Assembly (NCBI RefSeq): GCF_003018255.1
Contig: NZ_CP027440.1
Reading direction: 5' to 3' (one strand)
Length of the DNA stretch: 64,000 bases
From: Escherichia coli
GTDB taxonomy: Bacteria > Pseudomonadota > Gammaproteobacteria > Enterobacterales > Enterobacteriaceae
The notes under the pieces were generated by a model, which was given only the letters and a program-made list of their open reading frames with translations, made no database searches and was not told where the DNA came from. Positions 3,132-63,205 of the stretch are shown one piece after another. Position numbers and translations under genes: made by a program. The stretch's first letter is position 1. Each line of letters begins with the position of its first letter.

Positions 3132-5074
3132 CGCCCTTGCTCGAATTAAAGGATATTCGTCGCAGCTATCCTGCCGGTGATGAGCAGGTTGAGGTGCTGA
3201 AGGGCATCAGCCTCGATATTTATGCCGGTGAGATGGTGGCGATTGTTGGCGCTTCGGGTTCCGGTAAATCGACCCTGATGAATATTCTCGGCTGTCTGGA
3301 TAAGGCCACCAGCGGCACCTATCGCGTCGCCGGTCAGGATGTTGCCACGCTGGACGCCGATGCGCTGGCGCAACTGCGCCGCGAGCATTTCGGCTTTATT
3401 TTCCAGCGTTACCATTTGCTTTCGCATTTAACCGCCGAGCAGAACGTTGAAGTACCCGCCGTCTATGCCGGTCTTGAGCGGAAACAGCGGCTGCTTCGCG
3501 CCCAGGAGTTACTGCAACGACTGGGGCTGGAAGACCGTACAGAGTATTACCCGGCACAGCTTTCGGGTGGCCAGCAACAGCGCGTCAGCATCGCGCGGGC
3601 ATTGATGAACGGCGGTCAGGTAATTCTTGCCGATGAACCGACCGGCGCACTGGACAGCCATTCTGGCGAAGAGGTGATGGCGATCCTGCATCAGCTGCGC
3701 GATCGCGGGCATACGGTGATTATCGTCACCCACGATCCGCAGGTTGCTGCTCAGGCCGAGCGGGTGATCGAAATTCGCGACGGCGAAATTGTGCGCAATC
3801 CTCCCGCCATTGAAAAAGTGAATGTTGCTGGCGGGACGGAACCTGTTGTCAACACGGCGTCTGGCTGGCGGCAGTTTGTCAGCGGTTTTAACGAGGCGCT
3901 GACGATGGCATGGCGGGCGCTGGCAGCGAATAAAATGCGTACTTTACTGACCATGCTGGGGATTATTATCGGTATTGCGTCGGTGGTTTCCATTGTCGTG
4001 GTGGGTGACGCCGCCAAACAAATGGTGCTGGCGGATATTCGTTCTATTGGTACGAATACTATTGATGTCTATCCCGGGAAAGATTTTGGCGATGACGATC
4101 CGCAATATCAGCAGGCGCTGAAGTACGACGACTTAATCGCCATCCAAAAACAACCGTGGGTCGCTTCAGCCACACCTGCCGTCTCGCAAAACCTGCGCCT
4201 GCGTTATAACAATGTTGATGTTGCTGCCAGTGCCAATGGCGTGAGCGGCGATTATTTTAATGTCTATGGCATGACCTTCAGTGAAGGAAACACCTTTAAT
4301 CAGGAGCAGCTGAACGGTCGTGCGCAGGTGGTGGTGCTCGACAGTAATACTCGCCGCCAGCTTTTCCCCCATAAAGCAGATGTGGTTGGCGAGGTGATTC
4401 TGGTCGGCAATATGCCCGCCAGAGTCATTGGTGTGGCGGAAGAAAAACAGTCGATGTTTGGTAGCAGTAAAGTGCTGCGTGTCTGGCTACCTTACAGCAC
4501 GATGTCCGGGCGAGTTATGGGCCAGTCGTGGCTGAACTCCATTACTGTCAGGGTGAAAGAAGGATTTGACAGCGCTGAGGCGGAACAGCAACTCACGCGT
4601 TTACTTTCACTGCGCCACGGTAAGAAGGATTTCTTTACCTGGAACATGGACGGCGTCTTGAAAACCGTTGAAAAGACCACACGTACTTTACAACTGTTTC
4701 TGACGCTGGTGGCGGTGATTTCGCTGGTGGTGGGCGGTATTGGTGTAATGAATATTATGCTGGTGTCAGTGACCGAGCGGACGCGGGAAATTGGCATTCG
4801 CATGGCTGTAGGTGCGCGAGCAAGCGATGTTTTGCAACAGTTCCTGATCGAAGCCGTACTGGTTTGCCTGGTCGGTGGCGCGTTGGGAATAACACTGTCA
4901 CTGTTAATTGCTTTCACCTTACAGCTTTTCTTACCCGGCTGGGAGATTGGTTTTTCACCGTTGGCGCTGCTGCTGGCGTTTCTCTGCTCGACGGTCACCG
5001 GGATTTTATTTGGCTGGTTACCCGCACGAAATGCGGCACGACTGGATCCAGTAGATGCTCTGGCACGAGAGTAA
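3128..5074 (+). CDS. macB: Macrolide ABC exporter ATPase/permease MacB
   Basis: 648 aa; Walker [10 protein letters not shown] and ABC signature LSGGQQQR in translation; C-terminal FtsX-like TM region. Confidence 0.95.
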
Positions 5075-8380: not shown

Positions 8381-8557
8381 TTTATGGGGTGGAGGAGGTT
8401 CTGACCCTTTTTTTGATGATGATGGTAATTTGTTGATAATTAGTGCTGCGGGAAGGTAAGGATAAAAAAGGGTGGTAGCAGGAAAATGAGATGGTTTTGC
8501 TTTATTAACAACGGGCTAGACGTGTAGTATTTGAGTTCACTGCCGTACAGGCAGATA

Positions 8558-8964
8558 AAATGCGAAAAAAAGCTCGTACTTTCGTACGAGCTCTTCTTTG
8601 AATATGGCGGTGAGGGGGGGATTGACTCGCTTCGCTCGCCCTGCGGGCAGCCCACTCACTGTGTTCGTGGTCTGTCCAACTGGCTGCGCCAGTTGTCGAA
8701 CCCCGGTCGGGGCTTCTCATCCCCCCTGGAGTGCAATATGCGAAAAAAAAGCTCGCACTTTCGTACGAGCTCTTCTTTGAATATGGCGGTGAGGGGGGGG
8801 ATTGACTCGCTTCGCTCGCCCTGCGGGCAGCCCACTCACTGTGTTCGTGGTCTGTCCAACTGGCTGCGCCAGTTGTCGAACCCCGGTCGGGGCTTCTCAT
8901 CCCCCCTGGAGTGCAATATGCGAAAAAAAAAGCTCGCACTTTCGTACGAGCTCTTCTTTGAATA
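8558..8964 (-). repeat. Tandem ~180-bp direct repeat (two full units plus a leading partial unit) downstream of serW; each unit = terminator hairpin + ~115-bp spacer + 19-20 nt copy of the tRNA-Ser 3' end
   Basis: Unit starts at 8605, 8784 and (true tRNA) 8965, periods 179 and 181; near-identical units differing by homopolymer length and one stem base. Confidence 0.85.
8923..8951 (-). terminator. Rho-independent terminator immediately 3' of serW (first of three repeated copies)
   Basis: Minus strand: gctcgtac-gaaa-gtgcgagc hairpin followed by 9 U; copies also at about 8565-8593 and 8744-8772. Confidence 0.8.
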
Positions 8965-9052
8965 TGGCGGTGAGGGGGGGATTCGAACCCCCGATACGTT
9001 GCCGTATACACACTTTCCAGGCGTGCTCCTTCAGCCACTCGGACACCTCACC
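8965..9052 (-). tRNA. serW: tRNA-Ser (GGA anticodon), 88 nt with long variable arm and encoded CCA
   Basis: Reverse complement reads GGTGAGGTGTCCGAGTGGCTGAAGGAGCACGCCTGGAAAGTGTGTATACGGCAACGTATCGGGGGTTCGAATCCCCCCCTCACCGCCA. Confidence 0.9.
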
Positions 9053-16303: not shown

Positions 16304-19300
16304 TTGAGCCAGGAATACACTGAAGACAAAGAAGTCACATTGACAAAGTTAAGTAGCGGCCGCCGCCTTCTGGAGGCGTTGCTGATCCTTATTGTCCTGT
16401 TTGCCGTCTGGTTGATGGCTGCCTTACTAAGCTTTAACCCTTCGGACCCCAGCTGGTCGCAAACGGCCTGGCATGAACCTATCCATAATTTAGGTGGGAT
16501 GCCCGGTGCGTGGTTGGCGGATACGCTGTTCTTTATTTTTGGCGTGATGGCTTACACCATTCCCGTCATTATTGTCGGCGGTTGTTGGTTTGCCTGGCGT
16601 CATCAGTCCAGCGACGAATACATTGATTATTTTGCCGTTTCGCTACGCATCATTGGCGTTTTGGCGCTCATCCTTACCTCCTGTGGTCTGGCGGCAATCA
16701 ACGCTGACGATATCTGGTATTTTGCCTCCGGTGGCGTCATTGGCAGCTTACTAAGCACTACGCTACAACCACTGCTACACAGTAGCGGGGGAACTATTGC
16801 GCTGCTCTGCGTTTGGGCAGCGGGCCTGACGCTGTTCACCGGTTGGTCATGGGTGACCATTGCTGAAAAACTCGGCGGCTGGATTTTAAACATTCTCACC
16901 TTCGCCAGTAATCGTACCCGTCGCGATGATACGTGGGTCGATGAAGATGAGTATGAAGACGACGAAGAGTATGAAGATGAAAATCACGGCAAACAGCATG
17001 AATCACGCCGTGCCCGTATTCTTCGCGGCGCGCTAGCGCGTCGTAAACGGTTGGCGGAAAAATTCATTAATCCGATGGGGCGGCAAACAGACGCTGCGTT
17101 GTTCTCCGGTAAGCGGATGGATGATGACGAAGAGATTACCTACACTGCACGCGGTGTGGCTGCCGACCCTGACGACGTCCTCTTTTCGGGCAATCGTGCA
17201 ACGCAGCCAGAATATGACGAGTACGATCCATTATTAAACGGTGCGCCAATTACCGAACCTGTTGCTGTAGCAGCTGCTGCTACCACGGCGACGCAAAGCT
17301 GGGCTGCACCGGTTGAACCTGTGACTCAGACGCCACCTGTTGCCTCTGTTGATGTTCCACCTGCGCAACCTACAGTAGCCTGGCAGCCTGTACCGGGGCC
17401 GCAAACGGGAGAACCGGTTATTGCTCCTGCACCGGAAGGTTACCCACAGCAGCCACAATATGCGCAGCCTGCAGTGCAATATAATGAGCCGCTGCAACAA
17501 CCAGTACAGCCACAGCAGCCGTATTATGCACCTGCAGCTGAACAACCTGCGCAACAACCTTACTACGCTCCTGCGGCGGAACAACCTGTTCAGCAACCGT
17601 ATTACTCCCCTGCGCCAGAACAACCGGTGGCAGGTAACGCCTGGCAAGCCGAAGAGCTGCAATCCACTTTTGCTCCACAGTCTACATACCAGACTGAGCA
17701 AACTTATCAGCAGCCAGCCGCTCAGGAACCGTTGTACCAACAGCCGCAACCTGTTGAACAGCAGCCTGTTGTGGAGCCTGAACCCGTTGTAGAAGAGACA
17801 AAACCCGCGCGTCCGCCGCTTTACTACTTTGAAGAAGTGGAAGAGAAGCGAGCCCGTGAACGTGAACAACTTGCGGCCTGGTATCAACCGATTCCAGAAC
17901 CGGTTAAAGAACCAGAACCGATCAAATCTTCGCTAAAAGCACCTTCTGTTGCAGCAGTACCTCCAGTGGAAGCCGCTGCCGCCGTTTCTCCGCTGGCATC
18001 TGGCGTGAAAAAAGCGACACTGGCGACGGGGGCTGCCGCAACCGTTGCCGCGCCAGTCTTCAGTCTGGCAAATAGCGCTGGACCGCGTCCGCAGGTCAAA
18101 GAGGGGATTGGCCCCCAGTTGCCACGACCGAAACGCATCCGCGTGCCAACTCGTCGTGAACTGGCGTCTTACGGTATTAAGCTGCCCTCACAGCGTGCGG
18201 CAGAAGAAAAAGCCCGTGAAGCCCAGCGCAATCAGTATGATTCTGGCGATCAGTATAACGATGATGAAATTGATGCGATGCAGCAGGATGAACTGGCGCG
18301 TCAATTCGCCCAGACACAGCAGCAACGCTACGGCGAACAGTATCAACATGATGTGCCCGTGAACGCAGAAGATGCAGATGCTGCGGCAGAGGCTGAACTG
18401 GCTCGTCAGTTTGCTCAAACTCAACAACAACGTTATTCCGGCGAACAACCGGCTGGGGCGAATCCGTTCTCGCTGGATGATTTTGAATTTTCGCCAATGA
18501 AAGCGTTGCTGGATGATGGTCCACACGAACCGCTGTTTACGCCAATTGTTGAACCTGTACAGCAGCCGCAACAACCGATTGCACCGCAGCAACAGTATCA
18601 GCAGCCGCAGCAACCAGTTGCGCCGCAGCAGCAATATCAGCAGCCGCAACAGCCGGTTGCGCCGCAGCCGCAGTATCAGCAGCCACAACAGCCGGTTGCA
18701 CAGCAGCCGCAACAACCGGTTGCACCGCAGCAGCAATATCAGCAGCCACAACAGCCGGTTACACAGCAGCCGCAGTATCAGCAGCCGCAACAGCCAGTTG
18801 CGCCACAGCCGCAGGATACCCTGCTTCATCCGCTGTTGATGCGTAATGGCGACAGCCGTCCGTTGCATAAACCGACGACGCCACTGCCTTCTCTGGATTT
18901 GCTGACACCGCCGCCGAGCGAAGTGGAGCCGGTAGATACCTTTGCGCTTGAACAAATGGCGCGCCTGGTAGAAGCGCGTCTGGCTGATTTCCGTATTAAA
19001 GCCGATGTTGTCAATTACTCTCCGGGGCCAGTTATCACTCGCTTTGAACTTAACCTGGCACCGGGCGTAAAAGCGGCGCGCATTTCTAACTTGTCACGGG
19101 ACCTTGCCCGTTCACTTTCGACGGTGGCGGTGCGTGTCGTTGAAGTTATTCCTGGCAAACCCTATGTAGGTCTGGAGTTACCGAATAAAAAACGACAAAC
19201 CGTTTATCTGCGCGAAGTTTTGGATAACGCCAAATTCCGCGATAATCCGTCGCCATTAACCGTGGTGCTGGGTAAAGATATCGCCGGTGAGCCGGTGGTT

Positions 19301-30372: not shown

Positions 30373-31803
30373 ATGGCTGGGAATGTTCAGGAAAAACAGC
30401 TGCGATGGTACAACATTGCGCTGATGTCTTTTATCACTGTCTGGGGTTTTGGCAACGTTGTTAATAACTACGCCAACCAGGGGCTGGTGGTTGTTTTTTC
30501 ATGGGTGTTTATCTTTGCGCTCTATTTCACACCTTATGCGCTAATTGTTGGTCAGTTAGGCTCGACCTTCAAAGATGGGAAGGGCGGGGTCAGTACCTGG
30601 ATTAAACACACGATGGGACCCGGACTGGCTTACCTCGCCGCGTGGACCTACTGGGTAGTGCATATTCCCTATCTGGCACAAAAACCCCAGGCAATACTGA
30701 TTGCGCTCGGTTGGGCGATGAAAGGCGACGGTTCGTTAATCAAAGAATATTCAGTCGTAGCGTTACAGGGGTTAACGCTGGTGCTGTTTATCTTCTTTAT
30801 GTGGGTTGCTTCACGCGGTATGAAATCGCTGAAAATCGTCGGTTCTGTGGCAGGGATTGCGATGTTTGTTATGTCGCTCCTGTATGTGGCGATGGCGGTA
30901 ACCGCGCCTGCAATTACTGAAGTGCATATTGCGACCACAAACATTACCTGGGAAACGTTCATTCCTCATATCGACTTTACCTACATTACCACTATTTCAA
31001 TGCTGGTTTTCGCGGTTGGCGGAGCAGAGAAGATTTCTCCTTACGTTAATCAAACGCGCAACCCAGGAAAAGAATTTCCAAAAGGGATGTTATGCCTGGC
31101 GGTGATGGTTGCGGTTTGTGCCATTCTGGGTTCACTGGCGATGGGGATGATGTTTGACTCGCGTAATATCCCGGATGACTTAATGACTAACGGTCAGTAT
31201 TACGCCTTTCAGAAGCTGGGCGAGTATTACAACATGGGTAATACTTTAATGGTGATTTACGCCATTGCGAATACCCTGGGACAAGTAGCTGCGCTGGTAT
31301 TCTCGATTGATGCCCCGCTTAAAGTGCTATTAGGCGATGCTGACAGCAAATATATTCCAGCCAGTTTATGTCGTACCAACGCTTCTGGTACGCCCGTTAA
31401 TGGCTATTTTCTGACCCTGGTGCTGGTGGCGATCCTGATAATGCTACCGACTCTCGGCATTGGTGATATGAACAATCTCTATAAATGGCTGTTGAATCTT
31501 AACTCGGTAGTGATGCCGCTGCGTTATTTATGGGTATTTGTTGCATTTATTGCAGTTGTTCGCCTGGCGCAGAAATATAAGCCGGAATATGTCTTTATTC
31601 GTAATAAGCCGCTGGCAATGACCGTCGGAATTTGGTGTTTTGCCTTTACCGCTTTTGCCTGCCTGACTGGTATTTTCCCGAAAATGGAAGCCTTCACCGC
31701 AGAGTGGACATTCCAGTTGGCGCTGAATGTTGCAACGCCGTTTGTGCTGGTAGGATTAGGGCTGATATTCCCGCTGCTGGCGCGTAAAGCGAATAGCAAA
31801 TAA
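30373..31803 (+). CDS. ycaM: APC-family amino acid transporter YcaM
   Basis: 476 aa from MAGNVQEKQLRWYNIALMSF; ATG at 30373; ORF-track N-extension rejected. Confidence 0.85.
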   Translation: MAGNVQEKQLRWYNIALMSFITVWGFGNVVNNYANQGLVVVFSWVFIFALYFTPYALIVGQLGSTFKDGKGGVSTWIKHTMGPGLAYLAAWTYWVVHIPYLAQKPQAILIALGWAMKGDGSLIKEYSVVALQGLTLVLFIFFMWVASRGMKSLKIVGSVAGIAMFVMSLLYVAMAVTAPAITEVHIATTNITWETFIPHIDFTYITTISMLVFAVGGAEKISPYVNQTRNPGKEFPKGMLCLAVMVAVCAILGSLAMGMMFDSRNIPDDLMTNGQYYAFQKLGEYYNMGNTLMVIYAIANTLGQVAALVFSIDAPLKVLLGDADSKYIPASLCRTNASGTPVNGYFLTLVLVAILIMLPTLGIGDMNNLYKWLLNLNSVVMPLRYLWVFVAFIAVVRLAQKYKPEYVFIRNKPLAMTVGIWCFAFTAFACLTGIFPKMEAFTAEWTFQLALNVATPFVLVGLGLIFPLLARKANSK

Positions 31804-31970
31804 TTATTGTGGTCGGTGACGCTGACTCTGGCAGATCTGACCCGTTTTTACATAATCGAGAAATGCGCGCAAGCCGCAGGACATATACTGGCGGTTTGGG
31901 TAATACATTTGGAAGCTGTGCTGTAAGGGCGTTAGAAATAGAGCTCTGAATTATTTATGCAGCGCGGAAT

Positions 31971-32006
31971 AAAAAAGCGGCAACTCAAAAAAGTTGCCGC
32001 TTTACG
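31971..32006. terminator. Bidirectional rho-independent terminator between convergent ycaM and pflA
   Basis: gcggcaact-caaaaa-agttgccgc hairpin flanked by A tract and T tract. Confidence 0.75.
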
Positions 32007-32012
32007 GGGAAA

Positions 32013-32753
32013 TTAGAACATTACCTTATGACCGTACTGCTCAAGAATGCCTTTCACGCGTTCCATGGTCTCTTTCTTCGGTGGTTTAACACCATCAAGT
32101 TTGTATTCTTCACCCATCGCCACCCATTTGTGTTTGCCCAGTTCGTGGTAGGGGAGAAGCTCGATTTTCTCAACGTTGCCCATATCACGGGTAAATTCAC
32201 CGAGGCGATGCGCTGAATCGTCATCGTCAGACCAGCCTGGGACAACAACGTAGCGGATCCACACCTTCACATTTTTGTTCGCCAGATATTTGGCGAACTC
32301 CAGCGTGCGGTGGTTGGAAACTCCAACCAGATTTTGGTGGATCTCGTCGTTCATCTGTTTGAGATCGAGCATTACCAGGTCGGTTACTTCCAGCAGTTCA
32401 TCAATCACCGGATCGTAACGACGAACAAAACCGTTGGTGTCCAGACAGGTATGAATGCCTTCTTTTTTGCAGGCGCGGAACCAGTCACGAACAAACTCAG
32501 CTTGCAGGATTGCTTCACCGCCGGATGCGGTAACGCCGCCGCCGGAAGCGTTCATAAAGTGGCGATAGGTCACCACCTCTCTCATTAAATCTTCAACGGT
32601 AACTTCTTTACCGCCATGCGTGTCCCAGGTGTCGCGGTTATGACAATACAGGCAGCGCATCAGGCAGCCCTGGAAAAAGGTGATAAAGCGAATACCCGGA
32701 CCGTCTACGGTTCCACAGGATTCAAAGGAGTGAATGCGACCAATAACTGACAT
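32013..32753 (-). CDS. pflA: Pyruvate formate-lyase activating enzyme (radical SAM)
   Basis: 246 aa from [23 protein letters not shown]; CxxxCxxC motif [10 protein letters not shown]. Confidence 0.95.
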
Positions 32754-62490: not shown

Positions 62491-63205
62491 GTGCACAGAA
62501 AACCCCCAGCTAGGCTGGGGGTTCCGGAAAGCTTTCAGCTTTGAGCCAGTTATTAAAACCCCTTTTGATTTGTTAAAACACCTTGCGGTCTGGCAACTGC
62601 AAGTGTCAAACAAGAAATCAAAAGGGGGTCCCAATGGGGAACGAAAAGAGCTTAGCGCACACCCGATGGAACTGTAAATATCACATAGTTTTTGCGCCAA
62701 AATACCGAAGACAAGTGTTCTACAGAGAGAAGCGTAGAGCAATAGGCAGTATTTTGAGAAAGCTGTGTGAGTGGAAAAGCGTACGGATTCTTGAAGCTGA
62801 ATGCTGTGCAGATCATATCCATATGCTTGTGGAGATCCCGCCCAAAATGAGTGTATCCGGCTTTATGGGATATCTGAAAGGGAAAAGCAGTCTGATGCTT
62901 TACGAGCAGTTTGGTGATTTGAAATTCAAATACAGGAACAGAGAGTTCTGGTGCAGAGGGTACTACGTCGATACGGTGGGTAAGAACACGGCGAAGATAC
63001 AGGATTACATAAAGCACCAGCTTGAAGAGGATAAAATGGGAGAGCAGTTATCGATTCCCTATCCGGGCAGCCCGTTTACGGGCCGTAAGTAACGAAGTTG
63101 GATGCAAATGTCAGATCGTGTGCGCCTGTTAGGGCGCGGCTGGTAAGAGAGCCTTATAGGCGCATTTGAAAAACCTCCGGCTATGCCGGAGGATATTTAT
63201 TTTCC
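62490..63205 (+). mobile_element. IS200-family (IS200/IS605 superfamily) insertion sequence, ~710 bp; ends approximate (about +/-15 bp)
   Basis: Single Y1 HuH transposase ORF flanked by left-end hairpin cccccag-ctagg-ctggggg and right-end hairpin cctccggctatgccggagg; no tnpB; mukB-ldtD spacer is ~710 bp longer than recalled for K-12. Confidence 0.8.
62634..63092 (+). CDS. tnpA: IS200 Y1-type transposase TnpA
   Basis: 152 aa from MGNEKSLAHTRWNCKYHIVFAPKYRR; HuH-like HIHMLV motif; ORF-track TTG start at 62583 trimmed to ATG 62634. Confidence 0.85.
   Translation: MGNEKSLAHTRWNCKYHIVFAPKYRRQVFYREKRRAIGSILRKLCEWKSVRILEAECCADHIHMLVEIPPKMSVSGFMGYLKGKSSLMLYEQFGDLKFKYRNREFWCRGYYVDTVGKNTAKIQDYIKHQLEEDKMGEQLSIPYPGSPFTGRK

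Follow-up and report, generated by a model that had tools for sequence, protein, structure and literature searches.

The stretch of DNA analysed in this study, hereafter called the window, comprises 64,000 nucleotides of an Escherichia coli chromosome (contig NZ_CP027440.1) and, according to a megablast alignment, is colinear with K-12 from ybjD/ybjX through mukB to ldtD. Around the interval of interest the genes follow each other as dmsC, ycaC (minus strand), ycaD, ycaM, pflA (minus), pflB (minus) and focA (minus). The ycaM gene (30373-31803, plus strand) is intact and codes for an APC-family permease of 476 aa. Its product is 100% identical to that of K-12 by tblastn, and RefSeq labels the identical sequence "ycaM: APC family permease". 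On the minus strand, pflA (32013-32753) is also intact and encodes the pyruvate formate-lyase 1 activating enzyme of 246 aa, which matches NCBIfam PRK11145 at 523.5 bits (cut-off 375) and is 99.6% identical to K-12 PflA (tblastn). The two genes are convergent, and the spacer between them (31804-32012) measures exactly the 209 bp given in the original prediction. This prediction relied on a gene map of K-12 that proved to be right: the annotated order in MG1655 is ycaM, ycaN (minus), ycaK (plus) and pflA (b0899-b0902), so that ycaM is not followed directly by pflA in the reference strain. K-12 ycaN codes for a LysR-type regulator and its stop codon abuts that of ycaM, and ycaK codes for an NAD(P)H oxidoreductase. 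The flanks, the 3' end of ycaN and the pflA terminator are 96-98% identical between window and K-12, whereas the K-12 interval is 1,476 bp longer.

The surrounding block had been described as otherwise fully syntenic with K-12, and this is nearly the case; three further small structural differences were detected in the window. Next to tRNA-Ser(GGA) (8965-9052, minus strand) lie two extra tandem copies of ~180 bp relative to K-12 (8555-8914). Each copy opens with a terminator-like hairpin together with ~19 nt from the beginning of the tRNA-Ser 3' end and continues with ~110 nt of other sequence; the copies look like reiterated fragments of a tRNA 3' end or an attachment site. Between mukB and ldtD a 709-bp insertion (62491-63199) is present that is absent from K-12. 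Its 169-aa ORF (62583-63092, plus strand) matches the Pfam family Y1_Tnp ("Transposase IS200 like") with an E-value of 5e-38, and therefore the insertion is an IS200-type element. Within ftsK (~17550-17586) megablast aligns the window to K-12 in separate, overlapping segments, which indicates a difference in repeat number of ~39 bp; the ftsK kilobase and the next one are the most diverged of the window (3.3-6.1%).

The first 113 bp of the ycaM-pflA spacer (31804-31916, minus strand) are the 3' end of ycaN, comprising the last 37 codons including the stop and 2 nt more. They agree with K-12 ycaN (positions 4505-4617 of the MG1655 reference locus, L001) at 110 of 113 positions (97.3% nt, blastn) and encode FQMYYPNRQYMSCGLRAFLDYVKTGQICQSQRHRPQ followed by the stop; the K-12 counterpart starts with FQIYYPNRQ. 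By tblastn, the stub corresponds to the C-terminal 36 residues of YcaN (267-302) plus the stop, with one substitution (36/37 matches, 97% aa identity, E 2e-19). It begins at the base after the ycaM stop codon, the same position at which K-12 ycaN ends, and is thus homologous at the orthologous position. The stub is in frame and 2.7% diverged from intact K-12 ycaN, and its three mismatches all fall within the 17 bp adjoining the junction. The HTH_1 DNA-binding domain (PF00126) and most of the substrate-binding domain are missing, while full-length YcaN of the K-12 type and its homologues carry both PF00126 and PF03466. We regard ycaN in the window as a pseudogene fragment, not a gene. The RNA of the stub folds no better than shuffled sequences (z -0.26 and +1.56), and Rfam gave a single, sub-threshold match over the spacer, which is located in the stem of the terminator (17.7 bits, gathering score 42, E 0.91).

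The spacer was aligned with the K-12 locus by blastn, which yielded two blocks of 97% identity: window positions 31700-31916 match L001 4401-4617, and 31957-32100 match L001 6129-6272. The 40 bases in between (31917-31956) have no blastn match and sit where K-12 has 1,511 bp. As a candidate, foreign or rearranged DNA was considered for this 40-bp filler and rejected. The filler has no k-mer match on either strand of the deleted K-12 segment and none by blastn in six E. coli loci. Alignment with other Escherichia species resolved it as a diverged ycaK end together with the ycaK-pflA spacer. The filler agrees with E. albertii in 32 of 41 columns (78%) and with K-12 (L001 6094-6128) in 22 of 41, and locus L008 bridges both versions; relative to L008, K-12 itself lost ~14 bp in the ycaK-pflA spacer. 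The plus-strand segment 31917-31956 accordingly holds the last ~3 codons of ycaK with the stop TAA at 31924-31926. YcaK has no tblastn match in the window, and the ~3 terminal codons and the stop are recognisable by nucleotide alignment only. The flavodoxin-like fold PF02525, which K-12 YcaK matches with an E-value of 3.6e-40, is not encoded in the window. Based on the blastn breakpoints, the Escherichia alignment and pairwise alignments, the deletion junction was placed at 31916/31917. Missing relative to K-12 is L001 4618-6093 (1,476 bp): ycaN has lost 796 bp, ycaK 581 of its 591 bp, and the divergent control region between the two genes (99 bp) is absent altogether. The claim that the spacer holds no ORF remnants is consequently refuted by the ycaN 3' piece (97% aa identity) and by the last codons and stop of ycaK at the junction.

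The ends of the missing segment were inspected as well. No IS end, target-site duplication, direct repeat or foreign DNA was found at the junction and the K-12 end points, and short direct repeats, for which a check of the junction had been proposed, were not found by a repeat search. Inspection by eye revealed no more than the imperfect microhomology TGG(A/T)AG between the two K-12 end points. A 13-nt, 92%-complementary inverted repeat in K-12 ycaN (L001 4610-4622 and 4633-4645) straddles the left breakpoint, and a breakpoint of the type seen in locus L007 lies just beyond its other arm.

Further downstream, an intrinsic terminator hairpin is located 3' of pflA at 31974-32003 (minus strand); in K-12 it also lies 3' of ycaK. 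It consists of a perfect 12-nt inverted repeat, forming a stem of 12-13 bp with 6 G-C pairs, and the predicted energies for the plus and minus strands are -19.0 and -20.3 kcal/mol (z -3.5 and -4.5); none of 200 shuffled sequences folded as well. In the minus (pflA) orientation, UUUUUUAUU comes after the stem, so that both the stem-loop and the U-run of an intrinsic terminator are present. A scan for consensus terminators made a call on this strand only, with TTTTTTATT after the stem. In the plus orientation, ACGGGG comes next, preceded by just three U's that are inside the extended stem, and the scan made no call. A single strong bidirectional hairpin had been proposed. One strong hairpin is indeed present; bidirectionality is half supported, as termination is convincing on the pflA strand alone. 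Since K-12 and ST131 have the same hairpin, it represents the pre-existing pflA/ycaK terminator that was spared by the deletion and was not created by it.

The distribution of this arrangement was determined in a collection of 5,426 complete E. coli genomes. A junction-specific 84-mer (31885-31968) was found in 1,023 of them (19%), many O157:H7 included, at 96-100% identity and always over at least 80% of the query; a 1.2-kb query gave 1,022 genomes. The K-12 segment that is missing here was present in 3,341 genomes and covered to at least 80% in 3,318 (~61% intact). Another 1,047 genomes (~19%), among them ST131, carry a ycaD|pflA allele from which ycaM, ycaN and ycaK are all gone. This larger deletion begins shortly past the ycaD terminator and ends shortly ahead of the pflA terminator, and in the ST131 locus L003 (NZ_CP063774.1, 5946-6043) pflA follows 96 bp after ycaD. 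The ST131 allele resembles that of the window in the interval affected, the retained pflA terminator and the frequency; in contrast, it also lacks ycaM and the ycaN stub. Rarer variants also occur; in CUPS04, the same interval was deleted by IS1. Added together, the three alleles account for at most 5,411 of the 5,426 genomes, as would be expected if they exclude one another at a single locus and no second ycaN-ycaK copy exists. A search for ycaN or ycaK elsewhere, as had been proposed, was run on the 64-kb window and gave no second copy by tblastn, and from the counts a second copy elsewhere appears to be absent from deletion carriers in general. Both the deleted and the intact state thus occur at appreciable frequency at one locus of one species, as in a segregating presence/absence polymorphism. 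The proposed strain-level difference in gene content is real with respect to K-12; it is, however, not private to the strain, being shared by 19% of the complete genomes and by O157:H7.

The remnant has already been annotated. PGAP lists a ycaN pseudogene at positions equivalent to 31804-31914 in O157:H7 PV15-279 and DETEC-S792 (NZ_AP018488.1, ECpv15279_RS05035; NZ_CP116067.1, PID00_RS26580). It is the same 111-nt feature on the opposite strand, abuts the ycaM stop codon and is flagged "incomplete; missing N-terminus"; the junction 84-mer in these records is 100% identical to that of the window and no structural difference was seen. DETEC-S792 is 100% identical to the window over 1.2 kb. RefSeq records name the stub "LysR family transcriptional regulator" or "hypothetical protein" and leave the ycaK tail without annotation. 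For annotation this means that the 111-nt "hypothetical protein" of many RefSeq records is the ycaN 3' stub. At the DETEC-S792 locus (L002, 4043-6201), pflA is not flanked by pflB as in the window; directly past its 5' end lie genes for a tyrosine integrase, an HTH regulator and a Cox-family protein, which, judged by the gene names, belong to a P2-like prophage. The pflA of this strain is annotated 57 nt longer. Our literature search yielded functional papers on YcaN and one published list of convergent overlapping gene pairs, which includes ycaM-ycaN, and none of these describes the indel polymorphism. Overall, the difference is an ordinary strain-to-strain deletion polymorphism of the accessory genome, with a stub that RefSeq already annotates.

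For a survey of the wider family, YcaM was used to scan a single genome of each species, and the loci obtained, 30 of them enterobacterial, were then searched with the K-12 proteins by tblastn. In ~15 non-Escherichia representatives ycaM and pflA are ~45-215 bp apart, in most of them less than 100 bp, while other representatives carry unrelated insertions there. The group with adjacent genes consists mostly of Citrobacter and Kluyvera and also includes Salmonella diarizonae, Yokenella and Pluralibacter. None of the 30 loci has an orthologue of ycaN or ycaK between ycaM and pflA by tblastn; the sole match to YcaN comes from two Buttiauxella loci, in which a LysR paralogue of 28% identity lies downstream of ycaM. 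All four other Escherichia representatives recovered via ycaM (E. albertii NBRC 107761, Escherichia sp. MOD1-EC7003, Escherichia sp. E1V33 and "E. coli" SCPM-O-B-8794) have spacers of 210-240 bp with decayed ycaN 3' stubs. Pseudocitrobacter corydidari has an intact module at the ycaM-pflA locus (YcaN 79%, YcaK 67% aa identity), and another enterobacterial contig shows the full order pflA-ycaK-ycaN-ycaM at 80% nt identity. Hafnia has YcaN-YcaK homologues at an unrelated locus. The YcaM scan also returned a 396-bp contig assigned to Corallococcus aberystwythensis (L047, NZ_RAWK01000613.1; coverage 0.67), whose YcaM fragment is 99% identical to that of E. coli and which is almost certainly an E. 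coli contamination of that assembly.

Several of these loci contain other genes in the gap. Two divergent "E. coli", E7-1N7 (L005, 4505-8503) and E69 (L024, 7430-13428), showed no detectable remnant of ycaN behind ycaM. In E7-1N7 the similarity to the window stops at the ycaM stop codon, and an island encoding one protein with an EAL and another with a GGDEF domain follows ~1.1 kb further on; the island of E69 encodes EAL, GGDEF and a family-2 (cellulose-synthase-like) glycosyltransferase. Two Citrobacter loci (L012, L014) and one of Kluyvera (L034) harbor an island of ~5 kb with PTS components EIIA, EIIB and EIIC (EIIC-GAT), a split transketolase (N- and C-terminal parts) and an RpiR regulator, as read from the ORFs of all three and from Pfam matches in L012. 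Another Kluyvera locus (L043) has a gap of 4.8 kb, and some Citrobacter carry, instead or additionally, a 264-aa gene without a Pfam match. The ycaM-pflA gap can be considered a recurrent insertion/deletion hotspot in Enterobacteriaceae.

LysR-type transcriptional regulators (LTTRs) are classically organized in modules of a regulator gene and a divergently transcribed target gene. This arrangement is seen for YcaN: in K-12, Pseudocitrobacter, Hafnia and locus L052, its homologue is always head-to-head with a gene for a Flavodoxin_2 oxidoreductase. As the LysR gene is always paired with the Flavodoxin_2 gene, the deletion removed one complete regulatory unit, and the module of the window, which encodes the last 36 regulator residues alone, is non-functional. 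At the level of the family, the sequence comparison identifies ycaN-ycaK as an acquired module.

The original prediction had left open whether the pair was deleted here or inserted in the K-12 lineage. Under the latter scenario the window would show the ancestral state, in line with the absence of the pair from Citrobacter, Salmonella diarizonae, Kluyvera and Yokenella, where ycaM adjoins pflA, and with the unrelated location of the YcaN-YcaK homologues in Hafnia. However, an allele that never received the insertion cannot hold fragments of the inserted genes, and the window has kept 37 in-frame codons of ycaN together with the stop region of ycaK. Moreover, the intact order at 80% nt identity in another enterobacterium long predates K-12; together with the intact order at the locus in Pseudocitrobacter it indicates that the intact arrangement is old. 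An insertion into the K-12 lineage is thus very improbable. The in-frame LysR C-terminus and the survey of outgroups and Escherichia establish deletion as the direction of change, not a recent K-12 insertion: the ancestor of Escherichia already had ycaN-ycaK, and the pair was lost afterwards. The deletion of the original prediction is upheld, and its cleanness is not, as the ycaN 3' fragment and the last ycaK codons have remained at the junction. Regarding the agent of this deletion, a mobile element that inserted and then caused an adjacent deletion or was excised could be envisaged, given that IS1 deleted the same interval in CUPS04 and that an IS200-like element resides elsewhere in the window. 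Against such an element, 31900-31960 contains no IS ends, target-site duplication or foreign sequence, and all bases there have homology to ycaN or the ycaK spacer, so that we consider it highly unlikely. For an assembly or collapse artefact no supporting evidence was found, and its probability is practically negligible, because 1,023 complete genomes, independent of one another, show the same junction (96-100% identity). In conclusion, the ycaM-pflA interval of the window very likely represents a deletion allele that is common in E. coli.

How old this deletion allele is, and how often it arose, is addressed by the junction itself. E. albertii aligns without gaps across it, with GGAAGC|TGTGCTGTAAG in the window and GGACGT|TGTGCTATAAG in E. 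albertii. Both share derived features of the right flank, namely TGTGCT, CTGAATTATTTATG and the loss of the 8-bp CATGCAGA, which are absent from K-12, L008 and L009. In E. coli, the filler version of the flank was never found with an intact ycaK in the 84-mer search. The gap-free E. albertii junction, the shared flank and the exclusive association of this flank with the deletion point to one old allele, which E. coli and E. albertii would have in common by descent or by cross-species transfer. This dating rests mainly on ~60 bp around the junction and on the comparison with one E. albertii genome. An identical junction in both species might potentially also have resulted from independent, recurrent deletion at a fragile site. 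Recurrence is clear at this locus: L007 keeps 32 bp more of ycaN, and in L008 and L009 the junction is 5 bp shorter and joined to a K-12-like right flank, so that these lineages probably lost the pair independently; the IS1 deletion of CUPS04, the larger deletion of ST131 and the inverted repeat at the K-12 left breakpoint add to this. Recurrent deletion would, however, have to account for a gap-free alignment across the junction with a shared derived flank, a flank that in E. coli occurs with the deletion only, and we regard it as unlikely. With respect to the single old allele, the stub of E. albertii has indels while that of the window is in frame. If the allele is old, the stub, which is only 2.7% diverged, must have been homogenised by recombination with intact alleles. 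The complete scenario, in which a very old allele predates or crossed the E. coli/E. albertii boundary, is linked to the 40-bp flank, has persisted beside the intact allele and had its stub refreshed by recombination, is speculative and quite unlikely to hold in all its parts. The 3' end of ycaM (31400-31800) shows 5-6% nt divergence from K-12, compared with a mean of 1.8% for the window, and the changes are all synonymous because the YcaM proteins of both are 100% identical. The possibility that this divergence marks an old haplotype tied to the indel was rejected, as the window and O157:H7, both carriers of the deletion, differ equally (94.8% identity). This divergence reflects a local recombination mosaic, not linkage to the deletion.

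Taken together, the results show that the Escherichia ancestor possessed the divergent genes ycaN, encoding a LysR-type regulator, and ycaK, encoding an NAD(P)H oxidoreductase with a flavodoxin fold, between ycaM and pflA. A single deletion of 1,476 bp, which starts in ycaN at about codon 265 and stops ~3 codons short of the end of ycaK, removed the DNA-binding domain and most of the effector domain of the regulator, the shared control region and nearly all of ycaK. What it left behind is a ycaN stub of 37 codons, which is non-functional, and the original terminator of pflA. The loss may have come about by illegitimate recombination or by slippage during replication, as suggested by the TGG(A/T)AG microhomology and the inverted repeat at the left breakpoint. 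The resulting allele appears to segregate in E. coli beside the intact allele (~61%) and the larger deletion that removes ycaM (~19%). From the ycaM stop codon to the nearest hairpin there are 170 bp of pseudogene, and ycaM transcripts would now run through the stub to the region of the pflA terminator.

With respect to physiology, a ycaN mutant of K-12 showed changed expression of ycaC, ycaD and focA and lost formate utilisation (PMC9068703). Judging from family knowledge and this mutant, the strain has probably lost the YcaN-dependent regulation of neighbouring genes as well as the YcaK activity. Approximately 38% of the complete E. coli genomes are without ycaN-ycaK (19% with the junction allele and 19% with ycaD|pflA). 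Therefore, the YcaN regulon of K-12 (ycaC, ycaD and focA, with the formate phenotype; PMC9068703) is not species-wide. The junction in common with E. albertii would be a small example of the persistence of old indel alleles under recombination. If selection maintains the old allele, for example via the effect of YcaN on focA, ycaC, ycaD or formate use, the locus would represent a long-lived regulatory presence/absence polymorphism beside the pfl operon.
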